Source: a bacterium (GTDB lineage: Bacteria; Cyanobacteriota; Vampirovibrionia; Vampirovibrionales; Vampirovibrionaceae). From it: a stretch of DNA of 64,000 nucleotides. This document shows, piece by piece, positions 102 through 48,500 of the stretch. The notes under the pieces were generated by a model that was not told the DNA's origin, made no database searches, and was given only the letters and a program-made list of their open reading frames with translations. Positions within the stretch are counted from its first letter, which is position 1. Each line of letters opens with the position of its first letter. The translations under genes were made by a program, and so were the position numbers. The stretch is from NCBI GenBank assembly GCA_030429585.1, contig JAUIEU010000001.1, positions 353,982 through 417,981 on the forward strand. Reading direction: 5' to 3'.

Positions 102-245
102 AAGGCAAAAAATCCATACAGGGTGTAATGTTAAGGCCTAGCGGCCATCGTAAAGCGCGTTCGCTAGACATGGGTTATATATGGGTATTATGGTATAACC
201 AAACCCGCATTACTATTGTTGCCATTGTCTCGAAAGATCCTTACC

Positions 246-1595
246 ATGCCTGCTGATACCGTTACTGCTGCCCCCGATGCTGCCGCTGTGCAGGTGCAGG
301 AGGTTTTGCGAAAAAAACGACAGGGCCAAACCCTTACCACGGATGAAATTCAAGGGTTTATAGCAGGCGCCATGGCAGGCGATGTGAAAGATTACCACGT
401 GGCCGCGTTTTTAATGGCCGCCTGTATACAGGGTTTAACGCTAGATGAAACCGTGGCCCTGACGGAAGCTTTTGTAGATAGCGGCGATCGCTTAGATACC
501 AGCCGTATTGACGGCATTGTGGTGGATAAGCACAGTACTGGCGGCGTAGGCGATAAAACGACGCTTATTTTGGTGCCCTTGCTGGCTGCCTGCGGGTTAA
601 AGGTAGCTAAGCTTAGTGGCCGAGGCCTTGGCTTTACGGGTGGCACCATAGATAAACTAGAAGCCATCCCTGAGTTTAATACAGCTTTGCAGATGGACGC
701 GTTTATTGAGCAGGTAAACACGGTAGGGGCAGCCATTAGCAGCCAAACCGCCAACTTAGCCCCGGCAGATGGCAAGTTGTATGCCTTGCGCGATGTGACC
801 GCCACAGTAGATAACATCCCTATGATTGCGGCCTCGGTGGTTTCTAAAAAAATAGCTACCGGTGCGGATGTAGTGGTGCTGGATATTAAGGTAGGCCAAG
901 GCGCCTTTATGAAAACCATTGAGGAAGCCCAAGAGTTGGCCCAATGGTGCCGACAGATTGGTGAGCAGCTGGGCAAAATATTCAGTACCGTAATTTCTCG
1001 TATGGAAGAACCACTGGGCTGCGCGGTAGGCCACACGCTAGAAGTGCTAGAAAGTATAGATGTGCTAAAAGGCCAAGGCCCCAAAGATGTATGCGATTTG
1101 GTAGACGTGCTGGGCGGTGTGGCTTTATTTACAGCTGGCAAAGCGGATAGCCTAGAGGCGGCCACGGCCCTAATTAAACAAAAACGCCAAAATGGCGCTG
1201 GCTACGATGTGTTTAAGGCCATGGTGGCTGCTCAAGGTGGTGTGGTAGCGGCATTAGAACACACTGAAGCCATGCCGCAGCCGGATCGTATTCGGATTTT
1301 CCCCGCAGAGCGCAGCGGCGTGATTTGCGAAATTGACGCCTTAAAAGTGGCCCAAGCTACCAAAATGCTAGGCGCTGGCCGTAAAAGCAAAGAAGATGCT
1401 ATTCATCTGGGTGTAGGTGTGCGCTTGCTTCACCAAGTGGGTGATACGGTAGCAGCCGGCGACGGTATTGTAGAAATTCACACCACTGGCGAGGGTGAAA
1501 ACCAAGCAGTAGAATGGCTAAGCGATGCCATTACCATTAGCGATACGTGCCCCGATATCCAGCCCGTCGTGGTGGATATTCAATTAGCCAAATAA
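246..1595 (+). CDS. thymidine / pyrimidine-nucleoside phosphorylase (glycosyltransferase family 3)
   Basis: KHSTGGVGDKTT phosphate-binding motif and the SGRGLGFTGGTIDKLE block; the N-terminus VQVQEVLRKKRQG aligns with the DeoA N-terminus. The ORF track begins at a TTG at 216; the ATG at 246 is more likely. Confidence 0.9.
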   Translation: MPADTVTAAPDAAAVQVQEVLRKKRQGQTLTTDEIQGFIAGAMAGDVKDYHVAAFLMAACIQGLTLDETVALTEAFVDSGDRLDTSRIDGIVVDKHSTGGVGDKTTLILVPLLAACGLKVAKLSGRGLGFTGGTIDKLEAIPEFNTALQMDAFIEQVNTVGAAISSQTANLAPADGKLYALRDVTATVDNIPMIAASVVSKKIATGADVVVLDIKVGQGAFMKTIEEAQELAQWCRQIGEQLGKIFSTVISRMEEPLGCAVGHTLEVLESIDVLKGQGPKDVCDLVDVLGGVALFTAGKADSLEAATALIKQKRQNGAGYDVFKAMVAAQGGVVAALEHTEAMPQPDRIRIFPAERSGVICEIDALKVAQATKMLGAGRKSKEDAIHLGVGVRLLHQVGDTVAAGDGIVEIHTTGEGENQAVEWLSDAITISDTCPDIQPVVVDIQLAK

Positions 1596-1611
1596 ATTGT
1601 GCCCACTAGCA

Positions 1612-1827
1612 CTAAAAAAGCTTGCGTTGGACGGGTTCGGCTTCAAATAGCAGGCCAATGCCGCAGTCTAATATGTCGCATAGGCGGTCCATGTTTTCGT
1701 AGCTGGGTTGGGTGCGCCCGCTGGCCCAGCTGTACACGGTTTGTTGGGGCAGGGCCAATTCTTTGGCAAGCCGGTACAGGCTCCAATCTTTGGTTTCTTT
1801 GGCCACGTCTTTAATCTTAATTTTCAT
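1612..1827 (-). CDS. XRE-family (Cro/CI-type) helix-turn-helix transcriptional regulator, 71 aa
   Basis: The SLYRLAKELALPQQTVYSWASGRTQPSYENMDRLCDIL segment is a typical HTH_XRE pattern. Confidence 0.7.
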   Translation of the reverse strand: MKIKIKDVAKETKDWSLYRLAKELALPQQTVYSWASGRTQPSYENMDRLCDILDCGIGLLFEAEPVQRKLF

Positions 1828-2047
1828 ACCGAACCATACCTGTATGTATCTCTAACCCATAGCGTTATTGATTGTTTATGATGCAAGGTAGTGAACAAAT
1901 ACCACTGCACAACAAATAACTACGGGTATTATCTGTTGGGTTTTGCTTTTAGGGAAGCCCCGCCGGGGAGTTATCCTCCAAATACAGCACTTTTAGATAT
2001 TCAGTGCCTTTGCTTATAGTATAGAAAGCACCTTCAGGGATTACATA

Positions 2048-2689
2048 ATGACTATTAGACCTTTATCAGATAGACCTGTTTACCCATGGACGTCAGTGTC
2101 TAAACGATTGAATAAAATAGAGCAAAGATTACCGAAGAACGTTACTGATGAGCAAATTCGTCGGTATGGCACGGCAGTAGGTATGCGCCGTACAGTTTCT
2201 CGGGTTATGGGCGCTTTGAGGGCAGGGTATTTAGGGTTTGGTGTTGCCCCCATTGTTGAGCAGGCTATTAGTCATGGTATAGATCCTAAGCTAGCTATAC
2301 CTACGGCAATGTTAGGGCTCTTCTGGGGAACAAAAGAGATGATTGGTGCTCACCAAGCATCAAAAAACAAGAAGGAAATGCGAGTATTAGAACATCCTGA
2401 TGGTGTAAAATTGGATCAAACGAGAGAGAGCCTAATTAACCTGAACAGATTACTGCCTTTAGAAACTCAACGAGACCCGGTTGAACTAAATATAATTAAA
2501 AAGTTGTTGCACGCTAATGGCGCCATGGAATTATGCACAAAAATTGATAATCACTTGAAGACCTTGGGTAAAAAGAAAGCTAGAAAAAAACGCATTACCC
2601 CTACAGAAATGAATAAAATAAAAAGCATGCATAGTAAAATGTTAATCGCAATTAATAATAAAACAGGAAAATCTCATTTTGAAAATTAA
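2048..2689 (+). CDS. hypothetical Lys-rich protein (ORFan) in an AT-rich islet
   Basis: A 213-aa ORF at about 40% GC against about 52% for neighbours. It has an internal hydrophobic segment and a Lys-rich C-terminus, with no motif I recognise. Confidence 0.45.
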   Translation: MTIRPLSDRPVYPWTSVSKRLNKIEQRLPKNVTDEQIRRYGTAVGMRRTVSRVMGALRAGYLGFGVAPIVEQAISHGIDPKLAIPTAMLGLFWGTKEMIGAHQASKNKKEMRVLEHPDGVKLDQTRESLINLNRLLPLETQRDPVELNIIKKLLHANGAMELCTKIDNHLKTLGKKKARKKRITPTEMNKIKSMHSKMLIAINNKTGKSHFEN

Positions 2690-2749
2690 TCGGCCTGCTT
2701 ATTATTGATGCTATGATGGATTATTCGTATTTATTAGGTTATTTTTACT

Positions 2750-4159
2750 ATGCCCAAAACGATCATTGAACCGTTCCGCATTAAAACCGTGGAAGCTATT
2801 CCGCAAACCACGCTAAAAAAGCGTAAGGAATACTTGGCGGCGGCCAAGTTTAATCCGTTTAAGCTTCGGTCGGAACAGATTACTATCGACCTGTTAACGG
2901 ACTCGGGTACAGGGGCCATGTCCGCTAACCAGTGGGCGGCCGTGATGCAAGGCGATGAAACCTATGCCGGGTCGCGGTCGTTTTTTCAGTTAGAAGAGGT
3001 GGTGACAAAACTAACCGGTTTAAAACATGTACTACCCACCCACCAAGGCCGCAGTAGCGAGCACATTTTGCTGGCGGTGATGGGTACGGCTGGTAAAGTT
3101 GTATTGGCGAATAATCACTTTGATACCACCAAGGCCAATGTGGAATACCTAAAAGGCACCCCGGTAGACTTGGTGATTAAAGAGGCCCATGAGCCGGAAA
3201 CCAAGCACCCGTTTAAGGGTAATATTGATTTAGAAAAGTTGGAACAACACCTGCAAGAGCTGGGCGACCAAGTGGCCATGGTGCTGATGACGATTACCAA
3301 TAACACGGTGGGCGGTCAGCCGGTTAGCTTGGCAAATTTAAAAGCTGCCGCGGCATTGGCTAAACGGTTCAACAAGCCGTTTATTTTGGATGCGGCCCGT
3401 TTTGCTGAAAATGCCTGGTTTATTAAACAGCGAGAAGAGGGCCAGCAAAGCCGAAGTGTCCGTGAGATTGTGCGCGAAACGTTTGACCTGTGCGACGGCT
3501 TTACCATGAGCTGTAAAAAAGATGGCCTGGTAAACATTGGTGGCCTATTGTGCGTGAACGACGACACACTGGCGGAACAGGCCCGTAGCCTGCTGATTTT
3601 AACGGAAGGCTTCCCTACTTATGGTGGGTTGGCTGGGCGCGATTTAGCCGCCCTAGCCGTTGGCCTAGAAGAAGTATTGGAAGAAGATTACCTGCAATAT
3701 CGCATTGCCAGCGTGGCCTATTTACACAAGGCGCTGGATAAATTGGGCATCCCGCTGATGCATCCGGCGGGTGGCCATGCGGTGTATATTGATGCGACGG
3801 CGTTTTACCCGCATATTCCGGCGCACCAGTATCCGGGTTTGGCGCTAACCAATGCGCTGTATGTGGCAGGTGGTATCCGTGCTGTGGAAATTGGCACCCT
3901 GATGTTTGGCACACCAAACGAGGCAGGCGGCCCGGATAATACGGCGCCGATGGAGCTGGTTCGCATGACGATTCCGCGCCGCACCTATACCCAAAGCCAT
4001 ATGGATTACATTGCGGAAGTATTGGGCGATGTATACCAACAGCGCGATATGACGACAGGGTATGCCATAACCAAGCAAACATCGATTCTTAGGGCTTTTA
4101 CGGCGGAGTTACAGCCTGTAACAGGTGCGACGGAAAACCTTGCAGGCTCGGTGGTGTAG
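2750..4159 (+). CDS. tnaA: tryptophanase / tyrosine phenol-lyase family (beta-eliminating lyase, PLP-dependent)
   Basis: 469 aa. The SCKKDGLVNIGG PLP-lysine motif (S-x-KKD) is present, and the length and N-terminus are typical of TnaA/TPL. Confidence 0.85.
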   Translation: MPKTIIEPFRIKTVEAIPQTTLKKRKEYLAAAKFNPFKLRSEQITIDLLTDSGTGAMSANQWAAVMQGDETYAGSRSFFQLEEVVTKLTGLKHVLPTHQGRSSEHILLAVMGTAGKVVLANNHFDTTKANVEYLKGTPVDLVIKEAHEPETKHPFKGNIDLEKLEQHLQELGDQVAMVLMTITNNTVGGQPVSLANLKAAAALAKRFNKPFILDAARFAENAWFIKQREEGQQSRSVREIVRETFDLCDGFTMSCKKDGLVNIGGLLCVNDDTLAEQARSLLILTEGFPTYGGLAGRDLAALAVGLEEVLEEDYLQYRIASVAYLHKALDKLGIPLMHPAGGHAVYIDATAFYPHIPAHQYPGLALTNALYVAGGIRAVEIGTLMFGTPNEAGGPDNTAPMELVRMTIPRRTYTQSHMDYIAEVLGDVYQQRDMTTGYAITKQTSILRAFTAELQPVTGATENLAGSVV

Positions 4160-4190
4160 CTTGCTTGTAAGGCAACGTTGAGTGGGCTAT

Positions 4191-4378
4191 GCGCTACGGA
4201 TAAACGATTGATTCTGTGGCCGGGATGGTGCGTAGCTTGCGAGGAAAGCAAAATAGTTGCACGGAGTGTGCGCTACAGATAAACTATCGTTTCTGTGGCC
4301 GGGGTGGTGCGCGGCTTGCGAGGAAAGCAAAATAGTTGCACGGAGTGTGCGCTACAGATAAACTATCGTTTCTGTGGT
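4191..4378 (+). repeat. 2.4 tandem copies of a 79-bp unit (units start at 4191, 4270 and 4349) that run directly into tRNA-Pro
   Basis: Exact 79-bp periodicity. Each unit contains a degenerate copy of the tRNA 5' end (cgggatggtgcgtagcttg versus the true cgggatgtagcgcagcttgg) plus a TTGCAC-N17-TAAACT promoter-like pair (4257..4285 and 4336..4364). Confidence 0.85.
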
Positions 4379-4455
4379 CGGGATGTAGCGCAGCTTGGTA
4401 GCGCACGTCGTTCGGGACGACGGGGTCGCAGGTTCAAATCCTGTCATCCCGACCA
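4379..4455 (+). tRNA. tRNA-Pro (anticodon CGG), CCA encoded
   Basis: Hand-folded cloverleaf. Acceptor stem CGGGATG/CATCCCG, D-stem GCGC/GCGC, anticodon stem CGTCG/CGACG with loop TTCGGGA (CGG), T-arm GCAGG-TTCAAAT-CCTGT, discriminator A, then CCA. Confidence 0.9.
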
Positions 4456-4493
4456 ATTTTTATTGATAGACTTTTGCGGCGGCTAGAATTTTT

Positions 4494-5336
4494 ATGTCAT
4501 CCTTTTTTAGTGCTGAGGATTTGCATGAGTTAAATACAATTTATCAAAAAGTTAATTCTGATTATGAAAATTTATTACTCACTTATACTTATTATTTACA
4601 ACTAACAAATGAAAATGCGAATGAACATAAACAGCAGGGGTTTCTTAGGCGGTGTAGATTGTTAAAGAGAAGTATTGACAAAGTTTTTGAAATTTCTCCA
4701 TCTTAGTTAGATATGTATCTGGATGATGAACAATTGTCCGATATAAACATATATTTGCATTCTTTTATGATTAATTTGTATGGTTGTATAGAGAACTTGG
4801 CTTGGGTGTGGGTTAAGGAAAGTGGTTTTAAATACGAATATAAAGACTAATTTCGTTTTTATAATTCTAAAATTATTAATGGCTTTTCGGAGGAATTTCG
4901 AGACTATATTAATTCGGATGAATATAAAGACTGGAGAAGTCACATCGATAATTTTAGGCATGCTTTAGCTCATCGAATACCTTTGTATGTTCCACCAGCA
5001 ATATTTAATCGAGATGATAAAGTTAGATTTGATGAGATTGAGGCGAAAAAAGATGAACTTTTAAAAAATATTATGGTAATTGCTCGTAACGAAAATAATA
5101 ACTTGCTTTCGGATGTGCTGGCACAGCAGGATGTGGCTTTCAAAGAAATAAATGAGCTCGAAGCGGAAGGTCAAAATTTAGGACAATACACCCCAATAAT
5201 GACTCACTCTTATTCAGAAGGGTCTCCCAAGATTGTATTCCATGCACAGCTATTGGCGGACTGGTCTACTATTATTAAGATATCAAAGCTGTTTTTTAAT
5301 GAGCTGAATTATCAGAAAGGCATAAATGGTAATTGA
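4494..5336 (+). pseudogene. stop-disrupted ~280-codon reading frame with a HEPN-like Rx4H motif (possible decayed defence / abortive-infection-type gene) in a low-GC islet
   Basis: ORFs 4494..4706 and 4983..5336 and the open segment between them are all in the same frame. That frame is interrupted only by a TAG at 4704 and a TAA near 4849. The middle segment encodes ...DWRSHIDNFRHALAHRIPLYVP (R-x4-H). GC is about 33%. Confidence 0.45.
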
Positions 5337-5408
5337 TCTATAGTGTGTTTAACATAGCTGATATGAGTGGATAAAGAGCGAAATTGAAGTGATAAATTGC
5401 CACAATGC

Positions 5409-6914
5409 CTAAACATTGCCCAGGGTTAGTTGGTAATGCTTTTCAATTTCGTAGACTGAGTTTTTGTGCTCAATTAATTTTAATTCAGCATCTGCTGCGG
5501 AACGTTCGCGCTGGTTTACTAAAAACAAGGTGGTATCGCCTAGGCGGAACCGGATTCGTTCGCCCTCGGCTAGTTTTTTAGCGGTTTCATATTCTAGCTT
5601 AGCAGCTAAATATTGTTGGTGGCGGGCGGCCCATTCACTGGCCACGTCTTGTACTTCAATCCTAATTTGTTGGGTAATCTGTTGGGCCTCTATGGCAAGT
5701 TGGTCCATGCTTAATCGTGCCTGCCGCCGATCGCCTAATGGTTTGCGGTAGCGCAGGGGGATGTTCATCTGTATGCCGGCTTTAAATACAGGCCCAATAC
5801 TGTTGTTGCCTGTTTCCATACCATGGATAGCGCTGACATCCAGTTGGGGTAATAAATTATTAGTGGCCAGTGCTTTATCCACGGCAGCTAAGGTTTGTGC
5901 TAAACCAATCAGCTGGGGGGTGGGCCGTTGCTGTAAGGCGGTTACCGTATCACGCTCTTGTTGGTCAGCACCGGGTGGCGCAGGGGGGGTATTACCCGAG
6001 AGCCCAATTAGGCCCGGCGTTAATAGTCGCGCGTCTAATAGCATAGGGGTTTGCTGCGTTGCCACTAGCTCGCCTTTTTGTTGGGCAGGCTGCCAAAGGT
6101 ATAGCCCTAGGGCTAAGGCTTTCTCCTGCTGTGTTCGGTTTGTTTGTGCTTGCTGGCCTTGCCGTTTGGCTACCTCTCGTTTGGCTTCAGTGGCTACAAT
6201 GGCCGCTTCATCACCTAAGTCTACACGTTGCTGAATTTGATTTAACCGTAACGCCGCCAGATCGTTCAAATCGTCTACAACCGCAATACTTTGCCAGCTG
6301 GCCACCCACTGCCAATAGGTAATGTTCGCTTTGGTGAGTAGTTTTAAAGCGGATTGCCGGTACTTAATGCTTGCCATCAGTTCTTTTATTTTGGCTTGCT
6401 TTAGAGCGGCTACTTTTTCATTCATTAAAAAACCACGCAGCAAAGGTAGTTTTACCCCCCAGTAATATTCGCCGCCATCACCCGTAGGGGAGATGGGAGT
6501 TTTAATATCGCCAAGGGCTAATTTTCCTCCTGCTATAGCGGTTAAGCCAACAGAGGTAGGTAGGTTTAAGGTGACTTCATTTTCGCTTCCCAGTTGGGCT
6601 TTGCCTTCGACACTAGAGCTGTTGAATCGCTGGGTTTGGCTATTACCATTCACATAGGGGTCAAAAGCCCCTTGCTTGGATAAACGATTAGCGCCAGCAA
6701 TACCAATTTCTAAAGATGCCTGCTGCATATCGGGGTGATAGTTTAGAATACGTTCGATAAATGCATGGTAGGTTAAAGTATCAGGCGGTTTTTGTGTGAT
6801 TGGGTTTGGGCTGTTTGGTTGGGCAGCAGGCGAGTTGTTTTGGCAATACCCAATGGCGGTAATACCTATTAGGGAATAGGCCATTAAAAATAAGGTAAGC
6901 CAAAGCCGTTTCAT
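5409..6914 (-). CDS. TolC-family outer-membrane efflux protein (type I secretion OMF)
   Basis: 501 aa with an N-terminal signal peptide. It is the last gene of an ABC-HlyD-OMF operon. Confidence 0.8.
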   Translation of the reverse strand: MKRLWLTLFLMAYSLIGITAIGYCQNNSPAAQPNSPNPITQKPPDTLTYHAFIERILNYHPDMQQASLEIGIAGANRLSKQGAFDPYVNGNSQTQRFNSSSVEGKAQLGSENEVTLNLPTSVGLTAIAGGKLALGDIKTPISPTGDGGEYYWGVKLPLLRGFLMNEKVAALKQAKIKELMASIKYRQSALKLLTKANITYWQWVASWQSIAVVDDLNDLAALRLNQIQQRVDLGDEAAIVATEAKREVAKRQGQQAQTNRTQQEKALALGLYLWQPAQQKGELVATQQTPMLLDARLLTPGLIGLSGNTPPAPPGADQQERDTVTALQQRPTPQLIGLAQTLAAVDKALATNNLLPQLDVSAIHGMETGNNSIGPVFKAGIQMNIPLRYRKPLGDRRQARLSMDQLAIEAQQITQQIRIEVQDVASEWAARHQQYLAAKLEYETAKKLAEGERIRFRLGDTTLFLVNQRERSAADAELKLIEHKNSVYEIEKHYQLTLGNV

Positions 6915-6920
6915 TGCACG

Positions 6921-8348
6921 CTATTTCCGTTTTTTAACGGTTTTTAATAGTTTGGCGTCATCTTTAAAGGGGTCTTTATGGGGGCCAAAGCTAGTGGGCT
7001 TCATACCGTAATAATCTGGGGTGGGCGATACTGTTGGCGCGAACCCGTTAAACTGACGCCACAATTCAAACCAAATGGGCACGGTATCTAGCAATACCCA
7101 ACCAAGCGCCTGGCTTCCTGGCCGTAATACAGTGCTGTCGGGCCAAGGTTCTTCAGTGCCATTTTTAACGGCGTTTTTATCCGGTTTTACTAAAATGCGG
7201 TACATGCTGGCCCCATCATCGGTGGCATCTATCGCAACGATTGTTCCAGCAAACGTGCCCCGGCTTACACCGGGCCAACCCGCAAACTGAATAGCAGGGA
7301 ACCCGGCAAATTGTAGGCGCACTGGCCGCCCTACAGACAGCAACGGCGCGTTCCAATCAGCCACATAAAGTGCGGCCGCCAGGTCATTTGTTTGTGGGGT
7401 GATTTTAATAAGCGGTGTATCCGCCTTAACGGTTTCGCCTTTGCCTAGCTTAAACACCCGAGTTACTTGGCCGGATACTGTTGCGTGTATTTCTCGCTGC
7501 TCTTGGCGCTGTTTTAGGCTGGCCAGTTTGTTATTGAGTTTAGCGATATCCTGCGTTAGCTTAGCCGATTTTTCTGCCAAACTGGCCTGCTTTACCATCA
7601 CATCTTGCTGTTTAATATTGGTTTCGGCGGTTTTTTCGCCGGTGGCAAAACTAGCAATGCTGCGTTCTTGGTTGGCAATGTCTACACTGGATTTGGCTTC
7701 TTGTACATCGGCTTCTGCTTTGGCCACAGCCAATTGGGCTAATTCTAAATCGCGTTTACTGCGGAGCCCATTCGCGTACAATTCTTCTCGGCGGGATAGA
7801 TTGATTTGTGCCGTTGCTTGGGATTGTTCTGCGGCGGCTAGTTTTTGCTTAGAGGCGGCTATTTTTTGTTCTGCCTGACTAATTTTAAGTTGTGCTGCAG
7901 GAACAGCTGCTTGCTGTAGCGTTTGCTGGCTAACGAGTTGGCTCCCCATAATACCCAGTTGTTGCTGAATAGCTTGCTGTTGAGCCGTTAAAGCATCCCG
8001 TTCTTGTTGTAAACGCGCCAACTGATTAGGGTCTAAATAATCGGTTTTGACTTCTTCTAATGATAGTAACGCATCGCCCTGGTTGACCCATTCGCCTTCC
8101 GTAACGTGCCACTGGGCGATGCGGGCATCAATTTGGGCGTTAATGGTTTGGGGCCGCTCCATGGGTGAGAAAACAATGACCTCGCCTTTGCCCATAATGT
8201 TTTGTTGCCAGGGGGTTAGCCATAGGCCAAGCACCACGGCCAGTAATAAAAAACCAAGCACCCATGCCAACTGTTTGGCGTACCCATGGCTGCCAAGGCG
8301 GCTAAGGGCGGAGTTGGTAGATGACGATGCTAATTTAGCAAATGTCAT
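6921..8348 (-). CDS. HlyD-family membrane fusion protein (type I secretion)
   Basis: 475 aa with a single N-terminal TM (LAWVLGFLLLAVVLGLWL), a long Q/A-rich coiled coil and a C-terminal beta domain. Its start overlaps the ABC gene stop (TAATG at 8346..8350). Confidence 0.85.
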   Translation of the reverse strand: MTFAKLASSSTNSALSRLGSHGYAKQLAWVLGFLLLAVVLGLWLTPWQQNIMGKGEVIVFSPMERPQTINAQIDARIAQWHVTEGEWVNQGDALLSLEEVKTDYLDPNQLARLQQERDALTAQQQAIQQQLGIMGSQLVSQQTLQQAAVPAAQLKISQAEQKIAASKQKLAAAEQSQATAQINLSRREELYANGLRSKRDLELAQLAVAKAEADVQEAKSSVDIANQERSIASFATGEKTAETNIKQQDVMVKQASLAEKSAKLTQDIAKLNNKLASLKQRQEQREIHATVSGQVTRVFKLGKGETVKADTPLIKITPQTNDLAAALYVADWNAPLLSVGRPVRLQFAGFPAIQFAGWPGVSRGTFAGTIVAIDATDDGASMYRILVKPDKNAVKNGTEEPWPDSTVLRPGSQALGWVLLDTVPIWFELWRQFNGFAPTVSPTPDYYGMKPTSFGPHKDPFKDDAKLLKTVKKRK

Positions 8349-10105
8349 TAAAACCGCCCCCCATTACCGCTTAACCGTTCGGAGAGATCCGGGAACAGTA
8401 ATGAAAATTGGCCGCCAACATTTTTTGCTAATACTTCTGGCGGGCCGGATTCTGCAAAGTTTCCGTCGATTAAGACATGGGCCATATCGGTCCGTTGCAC
8501 AATTTCCGCATCGTGAGAAATATTTAGAATCGTCCACGGGTTTTCTGACGAAAAGAGCTTTTCCAAAATCCCCAGCTTGGTTTGCTCATCCATCCCTGTA
8601 AACGCTTCATCTAAAATAAGCAGTTTAGGTTGCTGCACAATGGCGCGGGCCATTAAAATTCGGTGGCGTTGCCCTAAGGATATATTGGTGCCCGCCGTTG
8701 TAATGCGGTGCTGCAAGCCATGCGGGTACTGTCGAAGATCGCGCGCCATCATTACCATATCTATGGCCCAGGCTAAGGCGCCTTGCGGCAGTTCATCTGC
8801 GGTTAAGCCCAGTAAAATATTATCTTCTACAGTGCCTTCAAACAGCTCGTATCCATCGCCTACCAACGCAATAGCCTTGCGTAGTTCCGGTAGTTTGTAT
8901 TGCCGAATATCGACGTCATTCAGGGTGATTTGGCCTGAGTGGGTATCGTGTAGCCCGCAAATAAGCCCAGCTAAGGTGGATTTGCCCATACCGCTGGGGC
9001 CGACAACGCTAGTGTGGCTTTGGGGCGGTAAATTTAAGCTAAGGTGCTGCACCACGTTTTTTTCTGGGCGGTACCCAAAGGTAATATTGTGGCACTTTAG
9101 GTGCAGCCCGTGGGTAATATCTGGTAGCGAGGTCCCATCCACGCGCTCTTGCTCAAAGCGGAGCACTTGGTGGACTTTATCTACAGCAGCCAGAAGGTCG
9201 TAACCGGATTCTAAATACTGTACTAACTTATCGGTGGCAGACAAGATGAGGAGGATAACAATTTCGCTAGCGACTAATTGCCCTAGGCTCAGTTGCCCGT
9301 TCATGACTAACCAGCCGCCAATCATCAGTACGCCGGCAGTAGCCATTGCTTCTAACATAAAATTAGCAAAGGATTGGCGAACGACGACGCGAAAGTGTCG
9401 TTGCCGAGCATCTAAAAATCGGTGCAATAAGCCATCTGTTTTGCCGAGTAAGGTGCTAGGGGCCCCATTCATTTTAAAGCTAATGCGGCTTTGCCCCATT
9501 TCTTCTAACCACTGGGCTACCCGGTACTTGGCCGCGGATTCGTCTAAGCTAGAGCTGTAGCCCCCGTAACCCAGCATAAAAATGGCGACCATACCCACTA
9601 AAAAAGTGATGTTAAACAGTAGAAACCATGGGCTGTAAAAGCTAATTAACAACATGCCAAGCATAATTTGTAATACAGAAGCGGGGCCATCTAATAATAG
9701 CTTGGCTAAGGTTTTTTGAATGGTGAGGACATCAAAAAATCGATTCAGTACCTCTGGGGCGTAGCGTTGTTTAAAGGCCACCTCGCTAACAGATAGCAGC
9801 TGGCTAGAAATAGACATGGCCGTTGTTAAAAACACTTTTTGCTGAATGAATTCCACAAGCTGAAGCTGAAGTACCCGTAACAGGCCCACAAGGATGAGCC
9901 CTGTTAATACGGCCACACCCAATACTAAAATGGGTTGGTTAAAAATGCCGCTGGCCAGGCTGCCAATAAGCCCTTGTGCTGTTAAAGGTACCGCCAGGAA
10001 GAAGACGCCAATAAATACAGTGTAGGCAGCTACAAGCCCTATATCCTTGTGGCTAGGTGTAAGCAGTGCCCAAAGGCGTTTTAAATTGGTCCACACGCTA
10101 TCCAA
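8348..10105 (-). CDS. type I secretion ABC transporter (N-terminal TMD, C-terminal NBD; no C39 peptidase domain)
   Basis: Walker A GPSGMGKST, signature ISLGQRHRILMARA and Walker B LLILDEAF. 585 aa, HlyB-like without a peptidase. Confidence 0.9.
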   Translation of the reverse strand: MDSVWTNLKRLWALLTPSHKDIGLVAAYTVFIGVFFLAVPLTAQGLIGSLASGIFNQPILVLGVAVLTGLILVGLLRVLQLQLVEFIQQKVFLTTAMSISSQLLSVSEVAFKQRYAPEVLNRFFDVLTIQKTLAKLLLDGPASVLQIMLGMLLISFYSPWFLLFNITFLVGMVAIFMLGYGGYSSSLDESAAKYRVAQWLEEMGQSRISFKMNGAPSTLLGKTDGLLHRFLDARQRHFRVVVRQSFANFMLEAMATAGVLMIGGWLVMNGQLSLGQLVASEIVILLILSATDKLVQYLESGYDLLAAVDKVHQVLRFEQERVDGTSLPDITHGLHLKCHNITFGYRPEKNVVQHLSLNLPPQSHTSVVGPSGMGKSTLAGLICGLHDTHSGQITLNDVDIRQYKLPELRKAIALVGDGYELFEGTVEDNILLGLTADELPQGALAWAIDMVMMARDLRQYPHGLQHRITTAGTNISLGQRHRILMARAIVQQPKLLILDEAFTGMDEQTKLGILEKLFSSENPWTILNISHDAEIVQRTDMAHVLIDGNFAESGPPEVLAKNVGGQFSLLFPDLSERLSGNGGRF

Positions 10106-10275
10106 AGTTTAGCCCTAAGTACTCAAAACGATGTGTATACTCTAGCTAAAACGGGTTACCAAATACAGGTAATGTTAATAGATTTAAAAACAATATAACG
10201 GTATGTTAATGTTGCGAATTTCGTCAATAAGTAGGTGTTTATTACTATTGGTGTAGAGGGTTTGGTTTTTTACGT

Positions 10276-11961
10276 TTACCACCCATTGCCCCAACTGGTG
10301 CCACTATTGTTTTGCCGGGCGGCGATAATATTTTTTTGTGCCGTTTGTGCAGCACTTGTTGCGTAGTCATAATACCCAGATGTTTTTGGTACCCGACGAT
10401 AATATACCTGCGCCATAGATAAATGATGGATGGCTTTTTTCCAATTCCACCAATGGAAGGCCTTAATCCCAAGCCGGTCTTCGTAAAAGGCATGGGCTAG
10501 TATGGTGATGGGGGCATTCGGCCTTGTATTGGTCCAGTGCTCCATTAGCTTTTTAATAGGTTTGGTTTTGTTTCTGTTTAGGTAACACATCATTAGGCCC
10601 AGGTGCACGGCAGAAATATCTGGTGTTTGCTTGTTTAGGGCTTCAAACGATTTGGTGGCCGTACGGTACTTTTTGTTTTTAAGTTGATCAAAGGCCAGTT
10701 CTAATTGCGTCGCTAGTTTTTGGCGGTTTTCTCTAATGCCGCTTAGGCTGCCTGTGCGAAGGACATGAGGTTGAGGCGATTGGTACTGGTTGACCAGCAT
10801 GGCGACATCGTTAGCGCTTAACCCGCGTGAGAGGATATCGATATCGTGAGATTGGAGTGGGTTCATAATATCGTTGCGGTTAGGGCTATGGTGGGTTAAA
10901 CCTAGGGCGTGGCCAAATTCGTGGAGGATGGTGGCGTATTGGGATACATCGGTAGGTTGTTCGCCCTGTGGCGTGTGGGTGGCAATAGTAATATCGACAG
11001 AAAGCAAGCTATCGCCAAGGAACATGGCATTGGTATTGCCAACGTCTTGGAAGGGTTTATCCGTTTTGTTTAATGTGTCGGCCCAGTCCACAGTAATATC
11101 CGCCTGTGCTGGGTCAGGCACTTGCTGAAAGGACACCATGTTGTTGGTTTTGCTAGACCATTCTAGTAGTGCCTTATCTACTAAGGCGGCCCATTGGGGC
11201 TGGTACCCTTCTACATTTTTACCATCCATAACCGCTATTTTAATGGGCATGGCTTGCTTCATCCACAAGTAATCCATGCGGCGATTTTGTCCCTGTCCGT
11301 TTAATTCGGCAATTTCTTTGGCAATTTGGTTGTTAATAAAGCCGGTTTGTTTTTGCTCATGTTCAATGGCGGAATCAATATTGCGTTGGTTGCTGTTTAG
11401 GTTTTGTTGATTGTGGGCCAGGTGCCGGCGGGCGTCATCGCCAAGTAAGGGGTGGTTTTGGAAAGATTCCATGATGGCACGAGCTTGTTGCAGGTATTGT
11501 TGGGTTTCTTCCAAGCGGTTGTTTTGAGATGCAACCACAGCTTGATGGGTTAGCCACGTGCCCTGGCGGTAACGTAAAATATCATCGTAGCCTGGGGTCC
11601 CTTTTTTGCTGACAAACCGGGTAAATAGGTGCTGAAACCCTTCCCAGTCTTCCATGCCGGAGTAGCACATAAACAAATGGTCAACACGGATAGGTGTGGG
11701 CCATAGTTGGTAAGCCTTTTCGTACAGTGCTAAGGCCGCTTTGTAATCCTTATTCCGGGCAAAGCTATTCGCTTCGTTGCCAGCCTTTACCATGGCATTG
11801 TATTGGTCAACCTCTGCCCGGGTGACAGGTTGCTTGGTTACGCGTTCGATGTAAGCGTCTTCTTCGGTTAGAGACTGACTAAATGCTGGGGGTAGCATAC
11901 TAGTGCCAAAGGCAATAAATAGTGCAATGGCGAGGAAGGCATGCTTCATAGTGATACTCAC
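10276..11961 (-). CDS. secreted zinc metalloprotease of the metzincin type (HExxHxxGxxH) with TPR-like repeats
   Basis: HEFGHALGLTHH zinc-binding motif, a Sec signal peptide (MKHAFLAIALFIAFGTSMLPPAFSQ) and TPR-like helical repeats in both halves. Confidence 0.8.
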   Translation of the reverse strand: MSITMKHAFLAIALFIAFGTSMLPPAFSQSLTEEDAYIERVTKQPVTRAEVDQYNAMVKAGNEANSFARNKDYKAALALYEKAYQLWPTPIRVDHLFMCYSGMEDWEGFQHLFTRFVSKKGTPGYDDILRYRQGTWLTHQAVVASQNNRLEETQQYLQQARAIMESFQNHPLLGDDARRHLAHNQQNLNSNQRNIDSAIEHEQKQTGFINNQIAKEIAELNGQGQNRRMDYLWMKQAMPIKIAVMDGKNVEGYQPQWAALVDKALLEWSSKTNNMVSFQQVPDPAQADITVDWADTLNKTDKPFQDVGNTNAMFLGDSLLSVDITIATHTPQGEQPTDVSQYATILHEFGHALGLTHHSPNRNDIMNPLQSHDIDILSRGLSANDVAMLVNQYQSPQPHVLRTGSLSGIRENRQKLATQLELAFDQLKNKKYRTATKSFEALNKQTPDISAVHLGLMMCYLNRNKTKPIKKLMEHWTNTRPNAPITILAHAFYEDRLGIKAFHWWNWKKAIHHLSMAQVYYRRVPKTSGYYDYATSAAQTAQKNIIAARQNNSGTSWGNGW

Positions 11962-42597: not shown

Positions 42598-45500
42598 TTA
42601 GTCTTCAGAAGATTCGTCTTCCACGGCCACGAAGCTAAAGCCACCATCGTCGCTCTCGCCGCCATCTTCCTCGATGAGACGTAAGTCGAAGGGTTGGCCA
42701 AAGTCGGTGCGCTCGTTAATAATTTGGGCTTCAACCGCGGTGGTTTCGCCATCGCCAATAACGCCGTCAACACTTTCAAAGGCTTTGTTGAACAGGTCAC
42801 GTAGGCGGTTGTAATCCACGGTTAGGTAAGGCAGGCCTTCTCGGTTTAAGGCATCGCCCAAGCTACCCAGCGCTAGGAAGTTACCGTTGAAGATAACGGC
42901 GCCAGGAGGGGTGCCAAGTACGTTGAGTGTGTTGCTTGGATTAACGACACCGTTAATAACAATACTAGTACCTGCCACTTGGCCATTCGCGCCAACGCTT
43001 AGGCTACCGTTACGAACCAGTACATCAAAGGGGTCGCCGATGGTACCAATAATACCGCCAGCCGTTAGGCGAGATGCACCATTGGCCACTAGGTTCACGG
43101 CACCACCATTACCATCTAGCAGGCTGCCAACCACATCAACAAACACTTGGTCGCCTTGCAGGCGTCCGGCCAGTACGGTACCGCTGCCTAGTGGGTCAAA
43201 CACACCCGGGGTATTGGTGCCGTTGCTAAAGCGTAGGTTACCGCCCGCTACCATAGAACGGATGATTACCGAGTTGGCATCGAAGATGCTGGTGGTACCG
43301 CCACTAGTGGTGGTTAAGAAGCTAGCGTTGGTATCTAGCGTAATGCCATCAGAGGCGTTCAGTACCATTTCTTCGCCGCTCACCAGGCCGGGGCCACTTA
43401 GGTTACCGTCTAGGGCGCTTAGGTTCACATTATCGTTGCCAAGCACATCAGCATTAACATCAATATCACCTTGGGCTGCCATGCTCACGCTGGAATCACC
43501 GGTAACCAGGTTGTTGATTTGAATGCTGCCGTCATCGTTGTTGATAGTAATGTCTGTGGCGGTTTGTTCGCCTTTAATATCAATATCACCGGCGCCAATA
43601 CTCGTTACTTGTAACGTGCCTTGGGCTTGGCCGCGGCGTAGTTTCACATCATCGGCTTCATCTACAAAAGCAGACCCGTTTTTAGCCGTAATGCGTAGTT
43701 TGTTAGCGTCTGTATTTAATGGGTCAGCCGCGCTACCAATATTACCATTTTTGGCTTTCAGTTTTACTAAATCGCCACCCACAGTGCCGGTGCCGCTAAT
43801 GCTGTTTTCAGCCGTCACGTCAGCCGTGTTGGTGGCGGTAACGGTGTTATTAACGATGATATCACCGCTTTTGTTATCGATAACGATATCAGTACCCGTT
43901 TGTTCGCCAGTAATTGTAATATCGCCAGCGTCTTTGCTGGTCACTTGCAAGTCATCTTGCGCATTAGACTTGCGCAGAATCACATCATCGGCTTCATTCA
44001 CAAAGGCAGAACCGTTGTTGGCGTTAATGCGCAGCTTATTGGCTTCCGTTTCAAACGGGGTGGCTTCGCTGCCCACATCGCCATTTTTGGCCTTTAGGCG
44101 GACTAAATCGCCGCGGGTTAAGCCAGTGCCGCTAATGTTATTCTCAGTGATTAGTCTCACGTCGCCTTCACCTGGGATAGCCTCGTGGCCTGGACGGCTA
44201 AATCCGCCGCCACCGTAGCTAAAGGTATCATCGGTTTCAACGCCCGCTTCGATAAGCCCATCGTTAATAATATCGTTGCCAGCGGTACCCGTCACATCAC
44301 CGGCAGCGCTTACACGGCCAGAGTCGTTCACGGTAATGTTTTTACCCGCAGTTAGTGTAATATCGCCGTGGGTGTCATCAATCAGTACTTTAGTAGTACG
44401 GCTAGGTTTAATAACGTCGCCGGATGAGGCCGAAGGGGTTTCTACAATACCATTGATGGTAATGTTTTTGCCCGCCGTGGCATCAATGGAGTGGCCAGCA
44501 CGAACTTCGCCTTTAGAGGTAACTTTAATGTTTTTGCCAGCATCTAACGCTACTCGGCCTTCGCTAAGGGCATCGCTGCCACCACCGTAGCTAAAGATAC
44601 CATCGTCTTCGTAGCCTGCTTGAACCAGTCCTTTAACGGTAATGTTGTTACCCGCGTCGCCACGAACGCGACGACTGGCGATAACCTCGCCGTTTTTGCC
44701 GACGGTAATATCACCATCAATGGCATCCAAGGTAACGACACCGGAGCGATCGCGGGGGCTAACAGGGCCACGACGACCGGGGCCACCACGGCCCATGGTT
44801 GGGTCATACGCTTCAACAAGCCCGTCGATGGTTATGTCATTTTGAGCGGTGGCATCAACGCGGCTTCCGGCAATAGCAGCGCCAGATTCGCTAACGTTAA
44901 TGTCGTTGCCTGCATCCAGTTCAATATTGCCGCCGAATAAAAGGCCAGGTACGGGCGAACCACCTCTTGTGGCAGGTCTGCTAAACAATAGCGGTTGGCC
45001 AGCAATTACGGTGCCATCGATTTGAATATTGTTACCGGCGTTACCGCTAACTAGGTTTTGGCCAATCACAATGCCGCCGTCGCTCACCGTAATATCGCCA
45101 TTGGTGGCGGTTAGGTTAACCGAACCGGGCGCAACCGGTGGGGGAACAGCTGCTGCGGTACGAACCGCAACCCGTGGGGATAAGTTTAAGGCACTAACAA
45201 TGCCATCCACATTAATGTTATTAACGGCTGTACCGGTAATAGAATTACCCGCAAAGATGCCGCCAGTGGCACTTACGGTAACATCGTTACCTGCGTTCAG
45301 GTCAACATCGCCGCCTTCCAGGGTGAAGGGTATTGGGCCACCAAGGGTACGTAGGGGAATACCGCCACCACCGTAGCTAAAGATATCATCGGGATGAACG
45401 CCAGCTTCTACCAAGCCATTCACCGTAATGTTGTTACCTGCATCCACATCAACGGTGTTATCCGCCAGGATAAGGCCATCGACGCCAACCGTCACGTTAT

Positions 45501-48500
45501 TGACGGCATCCAGCTTAACGGTGCCCGTGTGTGGGCCGCTGCCGCTGTAATCAAAACGGAAGTCAGACAGGCCTGATTCAACAGCGCCGTTTACCGTAAT
45601 GTTATTGCCTGCTTTGGCATCTACCATTTTGGCACCATGGACAACACCATTGACGCCAATCGTAACGTTATTACCCGCATCTAGCGTCACCGTATCACCT
45701 TCTAGCGGTATCTTGGTGGTTTTAGTGACTTTACTAATATCGCCAGGGCCGTGGTGGGTATCTACCAAGCCATTAATTAGGATGTCATCGGCCGCAGTAA
45801 TGGTAACGTTGGTGCCTAAAATGTCGCCAGGAACGCCAATCGTCACATCATCGTTACTGTTAATGGTGACATCACCACCTGCTTCAATGGAGCCGTTGTT
45901 AATAATGTCTTGGCCTTCGGCAAAGGCGACAGGGCCAAATTGGTCAAGGGTCACGTTATTATCGGCATGGATATGACCACCAACCTGGTTGGTAATGTCT
46001 TCTTTAACGCGAATTACGATGTTATTACCATGGATATCACCACCGTTGGCGACACTACCATTCGTCGCTTCAATCTTGGCTTTTTTAGCGGCGTCAATAT
46101 CGCCTTGGTTAATAATGTTGCTGGTATCCGCCGTTAGGGTCACTTTGCCCTCTTCAGCTTCAATACTACCCGTTTCGGTATTAAAGATGGTACCGACACT
46201 TGCATTGATGGTTAGGTCTTCGCGCTTAGCAAATAAGCGGCCATCGTTACGAACACTCTTGGCATCAATATCCAGGTTGCGACGACCTTTAATAAAGGCA
46301 TCTACTTTATTTTCAACACGGTGTGCCGCATCAATATCAACATCACGGCCACGAATATCACCGCTGTTTTCCACGTCATCGCCAGCGTTTAAAACAACAT
46401 CTCTACTGGCAAACAGGGTACCGGCTGTCGTGTTAATAATGTCATCACCTTCTTGGAAGGTGCCTGAATCTCCAGCGTTGATAATCAGGTCGTTTGCAGA
46501 ACTCATGGCCCCGCTGTTGGTGACTGTGCTACCAAGGGCATCAATGGTGATATCGCCGGTGGTGCTGGTAATGCTGCCGGGTGCTGTGTTGGTCACATCA
46601 TCCATGGTGGTGATGGCTACGCTCGCCCCTTGAACAGAACCGGTATTATCAAAATCATCGCGCGAGGTAATGGTCACCGCGCCGCCAGCATCAATGCCGC
46701 CATTGTTAATTATATCAGCGCCTTCCAGGTGAACGGTGCTGTTACCACGTGAACGAAGCTCTACCGTATCAGTGGCTTCAATCGTACCGCCGGTGCTGTT
46801 TTCCACGTTGTCAAACGCTAACATGACTACTCGACTGCCGCTTAGCGAACCGCTGTTAATTGCGGTGGTGTCAGCCATCAGGCGAGTCATGCGATTCGCC
46901 TCTACCGTGCCAGTGTTCTCTACTTCGCCCATATCAGAGGTGAGTAGTACGTGGCGGCTAACGGATTCAATGGTACCGTCGTTTTTCAGGTTGCCAACGG
47001 TGTCAATGGTCACATCGTTGTTGGTGGCGGTAATGGCGCCATCGGTATCTACGGTGTTGGCGTCAATATCTACGCCTTGGTTACCAGTAATGGCGCTATC
47101 GGCTTCTGATGTGAACTTATCAGCTGCGGTAATTTTTACTGTGCCGCCTGTGCTGGTAACGCTACCGGTACCGTTATTGGCAACCGAATCACCGGCGTTT
47201 AGGGTGACATCGCCAGCAGCCGCAATGCTGCCGGTGTTGGTAATGTTATCGTTGGTGCCGGGAGTGGCCGAATCGCCACTATTAATAGCAACCTTGGCGG
47301 CAGAGCTAATACTACCGTTATTGGTAACGTTGCTTTGTTGGCTGCCTACAGCAGAGGTAATGGTTACATCGCCAGTGGTGGAGGTTAATGAGCCGTTGTT
47401 GGTAATATCATCATCGCTAGTAACAGCAACGGTTGTACCGCTCACTGTCGCATCGTTGGTAACGTTATCGACACTATGTAGGGTAACGCCACCACCCGAA
47501 GAGGTGATCATACCATCGGTGGCTAGTTCATCGGCGGCATTAACGTTGACGTATTCACTGCCCGCTATGGTCGGCGTATTGCCAGATCTATCGCGAATAT
47601 CAATGTTATCGCCAGCGGTAATATCCACTTTGTTACCGTTACCAATAGTGCTGTTGCCTTCAATAATAATGTCATCGCCAGCGTTCAGGTTTACGCGATT
47701 AGCGGCGGTTACGCTGGCATCCGTAATGGTGATATCACGGAAGTTCTCTGGGCTAGCAGCGTCACCCGTAATAAAATTAACATTGGCGGTACCGTGGACG
47801 CTACCCCCATCTACTTTAATATCATCGGCGGCAAAGGCATCGACGGTTTGAGCTTGAATGGTGCCCCCCGTGTTTTCAATATCATCGGCGGCCTGCATGT
47901 TTAGACGGGTGGCTGCTGTAATGGTGCCTCTGTTAATAATATCGTTACCTTCAATCTTGGCGCTGTAGTTCCATGGGGCGCCAGTTTTCAGGTGGATTTG
48001 GTCCACATCCGATAGAATTTGGCCAGTCGCATCGTTGGTGATTTTGCGGGCATCAATGGTTACTCGGCCGTTGTTAGCTTGGATGGTGCCTTTGTTTAGC
48101 ACGTTACCGTTCTGGTTGTTATCCGAATCCGCCGTAATGTTGAGCGCGCCATTGGTAGCCGTTACGGAAGCACCCGTATTGATTTCGGTTTCGCCAGTGG
48201 CGGTAAAGTCAACGGTTTCACCAGTAACAGATACGCCGTTGGATACATCCAAGTTGCCATTGTTGTTGGTAATAGCAACATTTTTAGCCGTGGTGTTGCC
48301 AGTGACGATAACTTCACCCGCGCCGGTACTGGCCAACGCCAGCATGTTGGCAACGTTACTGGCGCCCAGGTCGATGTTATCTAAATCACTTACAAACGCA
48401 CTGTCGCCAGCATTCAGGGTGACGGTATCCGCGTCAATCATCAGCGGGTTAGCTGCATCGGTGCCGATGTTGCCATCAGTCGCCGTTAGGTTAAGGGTTT

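Follow-up and report, generated by a model that had tools for sequence, protein, structure and literature searches.

Upstream of an intact gene for tRNA-Pro(CGG), the 64,000-nt stretch of DNA that was analyzed here (the window) carries tandem copies of the promoter region and the 5' end of this gene, which raises the question of how such an array came about and whether it has any consequence for the tRNA gene. The reading that we favor, with a probability of about three in four, is that the promoter and a stub of the tRNA 5' end were locally duplicated in tandem in the region 4157-4397, that this array originated by slippage or unequal exchange, and that it has placed two promoters in front of one tRNA gene. 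The features are listed in Table 1.

Table 1. Coordinates of features in the window and of the tRNA-Pro 5'-mimic units in other genomes
Feature	Sequence or locus	Position	Strand	Basis or remark
Tryptophanase-like gene tnaA (beta-eliminating lyase)	window	2750..4159	+	Pfam PF01212, E 6.5e-72; homologues named tryptophanase
Array left edge, GTAGCTTGC, includes the tnaA stop codon	window	4156..4164	+	sequence
Unit 1 (leader A1 + stub B1), most diverged	window	4160..4238	+	alignment
Decayed promoter copy TTGAGT-N17-TAAACG (unit 1)	window	4178..4206	+	sequence
Stub B1, CCGGGATGGTGCGTAGCTT, base before tRNA + degenerate tRNA positions 1-18	window	4220..4238	+	alignment
Exact 64-nt tract, first copy	window	4235..4298	+	exact-repeat comparison of units 2 and 3
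Unit 2 (leader A2 + stub B2), A2 identical to A3	window	4239..4317	+	alignment
Distal promoter-like pair TTGCAC-N17-TAAACT	window	4257..4285	+	TTGCAC 4257-4262, TAAACT 4280-4285
Stub B2, CCGGGGTGGTGCGCGGCTT	window	4299..4317	+	alignment
Exact 64-nt tract, second copy	window	4314..4377	+	exact-repeat comparison of units 2 and 3
Leader A3, directly 5' of the intact tRNA	window	4318..4378	+	sequence and alignment
Proximal promoter-like pair TTGCAC-N17-TAAACT	window	4336..4364	+	TTGCAC 4336-4341, TAAACT 4359-4364
tRNA-Pro, anticodon CGG, CCA encoded, intact	window	4379..4455	+	ARAGORN; Rfam RF00005, 63.9 bits
T-run right after the tRNA	window	4457..4461	+	sequence; missed by terminator scan
Mimic units, start CGGGATGTAGC like the tRNA	L052	6-353		
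Mimic units, start CGGGATGTAGC like the tRNA	L057	2096-2361		
Mimic units, start CGGGATGTAGC like the tRNA	L075	5060-5325		
Mimic unit	L082	4905-5001	-	model search
Mimic unit	L040	6802-6904		model search
Mimic unit	L036	1026-1128	-	model search
Mimic units	L129-L183			metagenome scan
Mimic units, six copies	L133	940-1754		metagenome scan

Tandem Repeats Finder reported the array at 4190-4397, with a period of 79, 2.6 copies, 90% matches, no indels, and a score of 346. A repeat search of the window revealed three 79-nt copies, which are arranged head to tail and in register. The in-register alignment gave the order A1-B1-A2-B2-A3-tRNA with unit boundaries at 4160, 4239, and 4318. Each 79-bp unit consists of a 60-nt leader (A) and 19 nt (B) that correspond to the base preceding the tRNA and to tRNA positions 1-18. 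The preliminary description had let the array start at 4191. The array itself was confirmed, but its left edge is further out, at 4157, in the stop codon of the upstream gene tnaA, and about 3.0 copies are present over 4157-4397. Of the copies, just the last one runs on into the intact tRNA gene, and its seamless transition into the tRNA at 4379, which had been described before, was verified by ARAGORN, Rfam, and alignment. The array had also been called exact. This is true for the period, which is exactly 79, but not for the copies, i.e., stub B2 differs from the real gene at 5 of 19 positions, and unit 1 and unit 2 are only about 70-84% alike.

An expansion of a single or a double unit during assembly would also produce such a copy number. 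The exact 64-nt repeat exceeds common k-mer sizes and would thus form a loop in a short-read graph at this site. The short-read contig Logan ERR3428548 (L001) indeed breaks at this repeat: it matches the window with 100% identity as far as 4264, where it stops, the run being maybe not independent of the deposited contig, and its sequence was found in a second sample too. The break is located where the next 31-mer turns two-copy in the window (4235 and 4314). This would fit a k=31 assembly graph if the B1-to-A and the B2-to-A junctions are both present in the reads, which argues against an artefact. Furthermore, as no two of the three units are the same, every junction has a sequence of its own that a 150-nt read can cover, and the array stands in a 2.2-Mb contig of the source record. 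Taken together, an assembly artefact is very unlikely. An exact-protein look-up for the tRNA-side continuation of the Logan contig retrieved nothing on record.

No further copy of the 79-bp unit was found within the 64-kb window, and the first 20 nt of the tRNA had no other match in it with up to three mismatches allowed. A degenerate 29-mer of the leader had no match in JGI metagenome contigs or in viral contigs. As far as the window and these contigs show, the unit is thus not a dispersed element, and the possibility of a widespread repeat unrelated to the tRNA, which had been raised in the preliminary description, was rejected.

The origin of the array is indicated by a short sequence that recurs at its edge and junctions. 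The left edge has AGCTTG in common with tRNA positions 14-19, and TAGCTTGC is common to the left edge and the junction of stub B1 and leader A2 at 4232-4239. Sites of the form (T)AGCTTG(C) are present at 4157-4164, at 4232-4239, at 4311-4318 (as GGCTTGC), and at tRNA positions 13/14-19, and the AGCTTG inside the tRNA is exactly 79 bp away from the corresponding upstream copy. Such a short direct repeat at the edge and the junctions and within the tRNA is typical of duplications that arise by slippage or unequal crossing-over, and it is probable that AGCTTG microhomology seeded the first duplication. An origin by slippage or unequal exchange, as had been suggested, also fits the constant period, the head-to-tail order, and the lack of foreign sequence between the copies.

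The following course of events is proposed. The first duplication would have occurred by replication slippage or unequal crossing-over between the AGCTTG at the tnaA stop codon and a second copy 79 bp away, which occupies tRNA positions 14-19. Once two 79-bp copies were present, homologous unequal exchange could have added or removed units. Unit 1 would have diverged for a long time before unequal exchange or gene conversion between the units gave rise to the third copy, and later exchange would have kept units 2 and 3 identical over 64 bp in their promoter and leader.

The divergence of the units is distributed as a mosaic. The leaders of units 2 and 3 are identical at 60 of 60 positions, whereas B2 matches the start of the real tRNA at only 14 of 19 (Fisher p = 5e-4). 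One recent whole-unit duplication is thus not sufficient as an explanation. Leaders A1 and A2 are identical at about 42 of 60 positions and differ by a 3-nt indel. The array therefore appears to be old at its left end, and units 2 and 3 may either represent a recent duplication of a B-A segment or have had their leaders homogenized by gene conversion. An additional process, either gene conversion confined to the leader or selection acting on the stubs, is needed to account for the mosaic pattern, which is not fully explained. A candidate for a fourth, older stub in the end of tnaA (4137-4165) was rejected, as 119 of 1000 shuffled sequences and 137 of 1813 window segments scored as well. The C-terminal tails of tryptophanase homologues were too variable to inform on it.

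The stubs were compared with the real gene and with each other. B1 has four differences in 19 nt, U8G and A9U among them, and the five of B2 are at position -1 and at A5G, U8G, A9U, and A14G. The two stubs are identical at 16 of 19 positions, and the three differences are all transitions. U8, A9, and A14 are positions that are conserved in tRNAs. The stubs are devoid of everything past position 19 and are mutated at U8, A9, and A14, and thus they cannot make a tRNA. Stub B1 was called neither by ARAGORN nor by Rfam. Judged by their sequences, the tRNA-like stubs are relics. In the whole array only the tRNA matched a known RNA family in Rfam. The folding energies of the unit RNA were no better than those of shuffled sequences (z -1.33 to +0.49), so that nothing points to a structured RNA, and this candidate was rejected.

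Two promoter-like pairs in front of the tRNA had been described before, and their positions and 17-nt spacers were found to be exact. The pairs are identical and lie on the strand of the gene, and the description of two tandem promoter copies upstream of one intact tRNA was thus verified. The further statement that every unit carries TTGCAC-N17-TAAACT holds for units 2 and 3, but not for unit 1, which has a decayed pair in register, 79 and 158 nt upstream of the two intact pairs. The final T of the -10 box has been lost in unit 1, and this promoter copy is therefore probably inactive. A generic sigma-70 consensus scan called neither of the two intact pairs, both of which were below the threshold, since TTGCAC matches the consensus TTGACA at only 3 of 6 positions. 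The same build was found 5' of tRNA-Pro(CGG) in seven Vampirovibrionales/Melainabacteria genomes (L008, L012, L015, L035, L037, L060, and L064). The form in these relatives is TTGC(C/A/T)N-N17/18-(C/T/G)ATA(A/T/C)T, with CATAAT, TATATT, TATACT, and GATAAT as -10 boxes. Their -10 box ends about 20 nt before the tRNA, compared with 14 nt for the proximal pair of the window. As the tRNA-Pro genes of relatives have the same promoter build, the two pairs are likely to be sigma-70-type promoters. The spacer of the promoters also holds GTGCGCTAC (4268-4276 and 4347-4355), which is the exact complement of GTAGCGCAC at tRNA positions 20-28 (4398-4406). The chance expectation for this complementarity is about 0.02, and TGCGCTAC is present in the promoter spacer of the Vampirovibrio relative L015 as well.

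From the positions of the boxes, transcription is predicted to start near 4370-4373 at the proximal promoter, with a leader of about 6-9 nt, and near 4291-4294 at the distal promoter, with a leader of about 86 nt. Both identical promoters, 79 bp apart, would read into the single tRNA gene, and the distal leader would be removed by RNase P. Directly after the gene, the T-run together with the acceptor stem is a possible transcription stop. It is plausible that the duplicated promoter yields extra tRNA-Pro(CGG). When the distal precursor of 163 nt was folded in silico (z = -1.97), stub B2 (CGGGGUG) was predicted to pair with the 3' acceptor strand of the tRNA, and thus long distal transcripts could misfold and might not add to the tRNA supply. 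Most likely, tRNA-Pro(CGG) transcription would on balance be raised modestly or not at all.

Promoters in series are known from stable RNA operons. The P1 and P2 promoters of rrn operons are two sigma-70-type promoters in series, and the longer transcript is trimmed by processing. The window resembles this arrangement in that serial sigma-70-type promoters lead into one stable RNA gene. In contrast to rrn P1 and P2, which differ from each other and are regulated separately, the promoters of the window are predicted only, and they are identical copies made by duplication.

A specific benefit of additional promoters could lie in the gene directly upstream. The stop codon TAG of tnaA (4157-4159) lies inside the short repeat at the left edge, and the gene is regarded as context and not as a part of the array. 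CCG makes up 16 of the 21 proline codons of tnaA, whereas 27 other long ORFs of the window have it as their rarest proline codon, with 92 of 664 (14%; Fisher p = 5e-10). In addition, the terminator scan revealed no terminator-like site between tnaA and the tRNA. The promoter amplification could thus be adaptive, i.e., extra promoters or read-through from tnaA would raise the level of tRNA-Pro(CGG) for the translation of a CCG-rich gene. Tandem duplication that raises tRNA gene dosage was reportedly described as an adaptive route by Ayan and co-authors in 2020, and the window would share with these cases that duplication is a quick route to an altered tRNA supply. However, those duplications are said to be large and to comprise whole tRNA genes, whereas only a promoter and a 19-nt stub were duplicated here. 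The 16 CCG codons of one gene are also a small share of the cellular demand. Furthermore, GCG, ACG, and TCG, i.e., codons for alanine, threonine, and serine, are likewise enriched in tnaA, which points to an atypical or foreign gene more than to co-adaptation. Relatives of tnaA at 68-70% nucleotide identity do not have such a preference for CCG. The gene may be either foreign or locally adapted. Adaptive amplification is thus an unlikely explanation of the array, and a functional link between tnaA and tRNA-Pro(CGG) is possible but speculative.

It had also been considered that the array might be a scar of a rearrangement at the edge of the adjoining low-GC islet. The stubs would then be 5' fragments that were displaced by the integrase-mediated insertion and subsequent loss of an element. 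tRNA genes are frequent integration sites, and in the Islander survey 159 islands (about 4%) were associated with upstream 5' fragments, compared with 3760 islands (96%) with 3' fragments (PMC4383910). The earlier statement that integrases usually leave 3' fragments is thus correct. In addition, the tRNA is followed by a low-GC stretch with small ORFs that have no assigned family. However, this stretch is on the 3' side of the tRNA, which is the wrong side for 5' fragments. The two stubs are separated by just 60 bp, which consist entirely of copied native leader, while the islands of the survey are at least 2 kb in size and bear an integrase (PMC4383910). Integrase or phage families were not matched in the ORFs from 216 to 11961 on either side of the array, and the 3' end of the tRNA is not repeated within the 64-kb window. 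The window has in common with island-displaced tRNA fragments (PMC4383910; PMC9897764) that a partial tRNA lies near an intact gene in the same orientation, but it differs from them in the 60-bp spacing by native leader, the missing integrase, and the 5' instead of the 3' end. An island scar is thus not supported and largely refuted, which makes this explanation extremely unlikely. A partial tRNA copy beside a tRNA gene is accordingly not always the footprint of an integrase, which sets a limit on annotation rules.

A local duplication, which remains the favored reading, is a familiar kind of event. A similar case is the tyrT gene of E. coli, downstream of which tandem repeats copy the end of the tRNA-Tyr gene. 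Both cases are local duplications that have led to a short tandem array, the unit of which contains about 19 nt of tRNA and flanking sequence. They differ in the part of the gene involved: in tyrT it is the 3' end and the repeats are downstream, while in the window the 5' end (tRNA positions 1-18/19) and the promoter were copied and the repeats are upstream. A unit with a tRNA 3' end downstream of the gene, as in the tyrT type, is thus not present in the array of the window. Descriptions of arrays that combine a promoter with a 5' stub at bacterial tRNA genes were not found in the full-text literature that was searched. The array is therefore best seen as a new variant of a familiar event, a small local duplication of modest interest alone.

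Related bacteria were searched for the same locus with a partly degenerate tRNA pattern, which turned out to be rather unspecific. The tRNA-Pro(CGG) sequence with 10 free positions was found in at least 119 species-level genomes, mostly Cyanobacteriota, and the source genome was not among the matches listed. The Cyanobacteriota among the matches listed included Vampirovibrio, Gastranaerophilales, and Sericytochromatia, and a few carriers were labelled Actinomycetota. Among these matches, none of the 119 loci had flanking DNA or proteins in common with the window. For the closest relatives of the tryptophanase (73-75% identity), the contigs had no tRNA nearby, and the same was true for the contigs of the thymidine phosphorylase relatives. 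The best matches of the thymidine phosphorylase encoded in the window had identities of only 66-67%, and those with a name were from Vampirovibrio, Vampirovibrionales, and Melainabacteria. The source lineage thus seems to be isolated and Vampirovibrionales-like.

Two of the at least 119 loci surveyed have repeats of the 3' end. In a Vampirovibrionales MAG (L049, about 3321-3127, minus strand) and in a Cyanobacteriota MAG (L059, about 808-1032), tandem repeats of 83-84 nt are located downstream of tRNA-Pro(CGG). These arrays, which are a 3'-side mirror of the array in the window, comprise 2.3-2.7 copies of a unit in which the tRNA 3' end (AAATCCTGTCATCCCGA) is combined with a T-run and with the T-arm in inverted form. 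About 40 nt past the tRNA of the window, at 4494-4512, the sequence ATGTCATCC and, after it, TTTTTTAG are similar to the tRNA 3' end and the T-run, with TGTCATCC as an exact 8-mer in common. This stretch also resembles the last repeat unit of the two MAGs. It could be a worn 3'-end repeat or, by chance, the start of the small ORF 4494-4706.

Upstream units of a different kind were detected in gut and rumen genomes that are Gastranaerophilales-like. A conserved unit of about 100 nt is present there in 1-6 tandem copies, with a period of 100-155, upstream of tRNA-Pro. A metagenome scan with CGGGATGTAGCACTCTGCCGA yielded 55 human gut and rumen loci with 1-6 copies and 73 distinct units, and the protein beside the array with six copies has named homologues in Gastranaerophilales. 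Where enough sequence was present, the units were located about 100-140 nt before tRNA-Pro genes of any anticodon (CGG, GGG, UGG). The order of elements in the unit is tRNA positions 1-11, the invariant ACTCTGCCGA, a variable hairpin, GAGAGG, GGTAGCGCAC (tRNA positions 18-28), and a second hairpin, which usually has a GNRA loop and is followed by an A/T-rich, TATAAT-like box. The hairpins covary, with 12 pairs changed on both sides and 63 such cells, a result that was reached by none of 500 shuffles and that was far lower in slid controls. The unit had no match in Rfam, and no description of it was found in the full-text literature searched. It is a candidate for a structured RNA or leader that has not been described previously. 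The preliminary description had called the amplification of a tRNA 5' end unusual. This is true in so far as integrase fragments are mostly from the 3' end, but upstream tandem units that start like tRNA-Pro recur in this bacterial class.

The window units might therefore have a function, as RNAs or as cis-regulatory leaders that imitate the 5' end of tRNA-Pro, and be a diverged or early-stage counterpart of the gut units. The layout is the same: the units are in tandem directly upstream of a tRNA-Pro gene, each starts like the tRNA and has a promoter-like box before it, and the final unit runs into the real gene. They are also found in the same bacterial class and at the same gene family as the gut units, which form 1-6 copies and covary strongly. 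Furthermore, the leader of the window was kept identical while the stubs drifted, and it contains the 9-mer complementary to tRNA positions 20-28. However, a covariance model of the gut family (R1, comprising invariant CGGGATGTAGC-ACTCTGCCGA, the two covarying hairpins, and GGTAGCGCAC) was searched against the whole window with cmsearch and hit only the real tRNA, with 11.8 bits and E = 1, while true members of the family score 50-100 bits. The array of the window thus stands outside this family, despite the same layout. The gut units are conserved across many genomes, with tRNA positions 1-11 and 18-28 unchanged and two covarying hairpins. The window units have none of these traits: the stubs number just two and carry 4-5 changes in 19 nt, and the unit folds no better than shuffled sequences. 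A function of this kind is therefore quite improbable, and a local duplication with relic stubs remains the preferred reading.

In a wider perspective, the tRNA-Pro genes of Vampirovibrionia (Melainabacteria) might repeatedly gain tRNA-like upstream units with an own promoter copy, which some lineages keep, the window showing the raw stage and the gut units an RNA that was co-opted. This generalization is unlikely. If it were true, the window would represent a recently reshaped raw stage and the units of Gastranaerophilales a stage that was put to use, the gut unit would be an undescribed RNA that acts on the expression or processing of tRNA-Pro, and the identical leaders and drifting stubs of the window would reflect selection and not accident. 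The array is a clean natural example of a promoter that was copied together with a stub of its gene, and it illustrates the role of microhomology, and of subsequent exchange among the copies, in shaping such repeats. With it, one could also examine in a simple way whether the supply of a single tRNA is tuned by the number of its promoter copies. Its wider value is that it led to the conserved structured 5'-mimic unit of related gut bacteria, which may matter more and deserves a separate study.

The ORFs that flank the array encode a thymidine phosphorylase, an HTH protein, the tryptophanase-like lyase, three small ORFs, and a type I secretion set. The three small ORFs are located in the low-GC stretch of about 950 bp (4456-5408) and have no family match. 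The type I secretion set is encoded on the minus strand (5409-11961); it comprises TolC-like, HlyD-like, and ABC proteins, followed by a TPR-containing M10 metallopeptidase, and it is convergent with the tRNA across the low-GC stretch. Farther away, an ORF of 2487 aa on the minus strand (42598-50061) has many internal repeats and no Pfam match. It adjoins a gene for a ShlB/FhaC-type outer-membrane transporter with a POTRA domain (50213-52045, minus strand), and thus the two genes probably form a two-partner secretion pair with an unclassified exoprotein.
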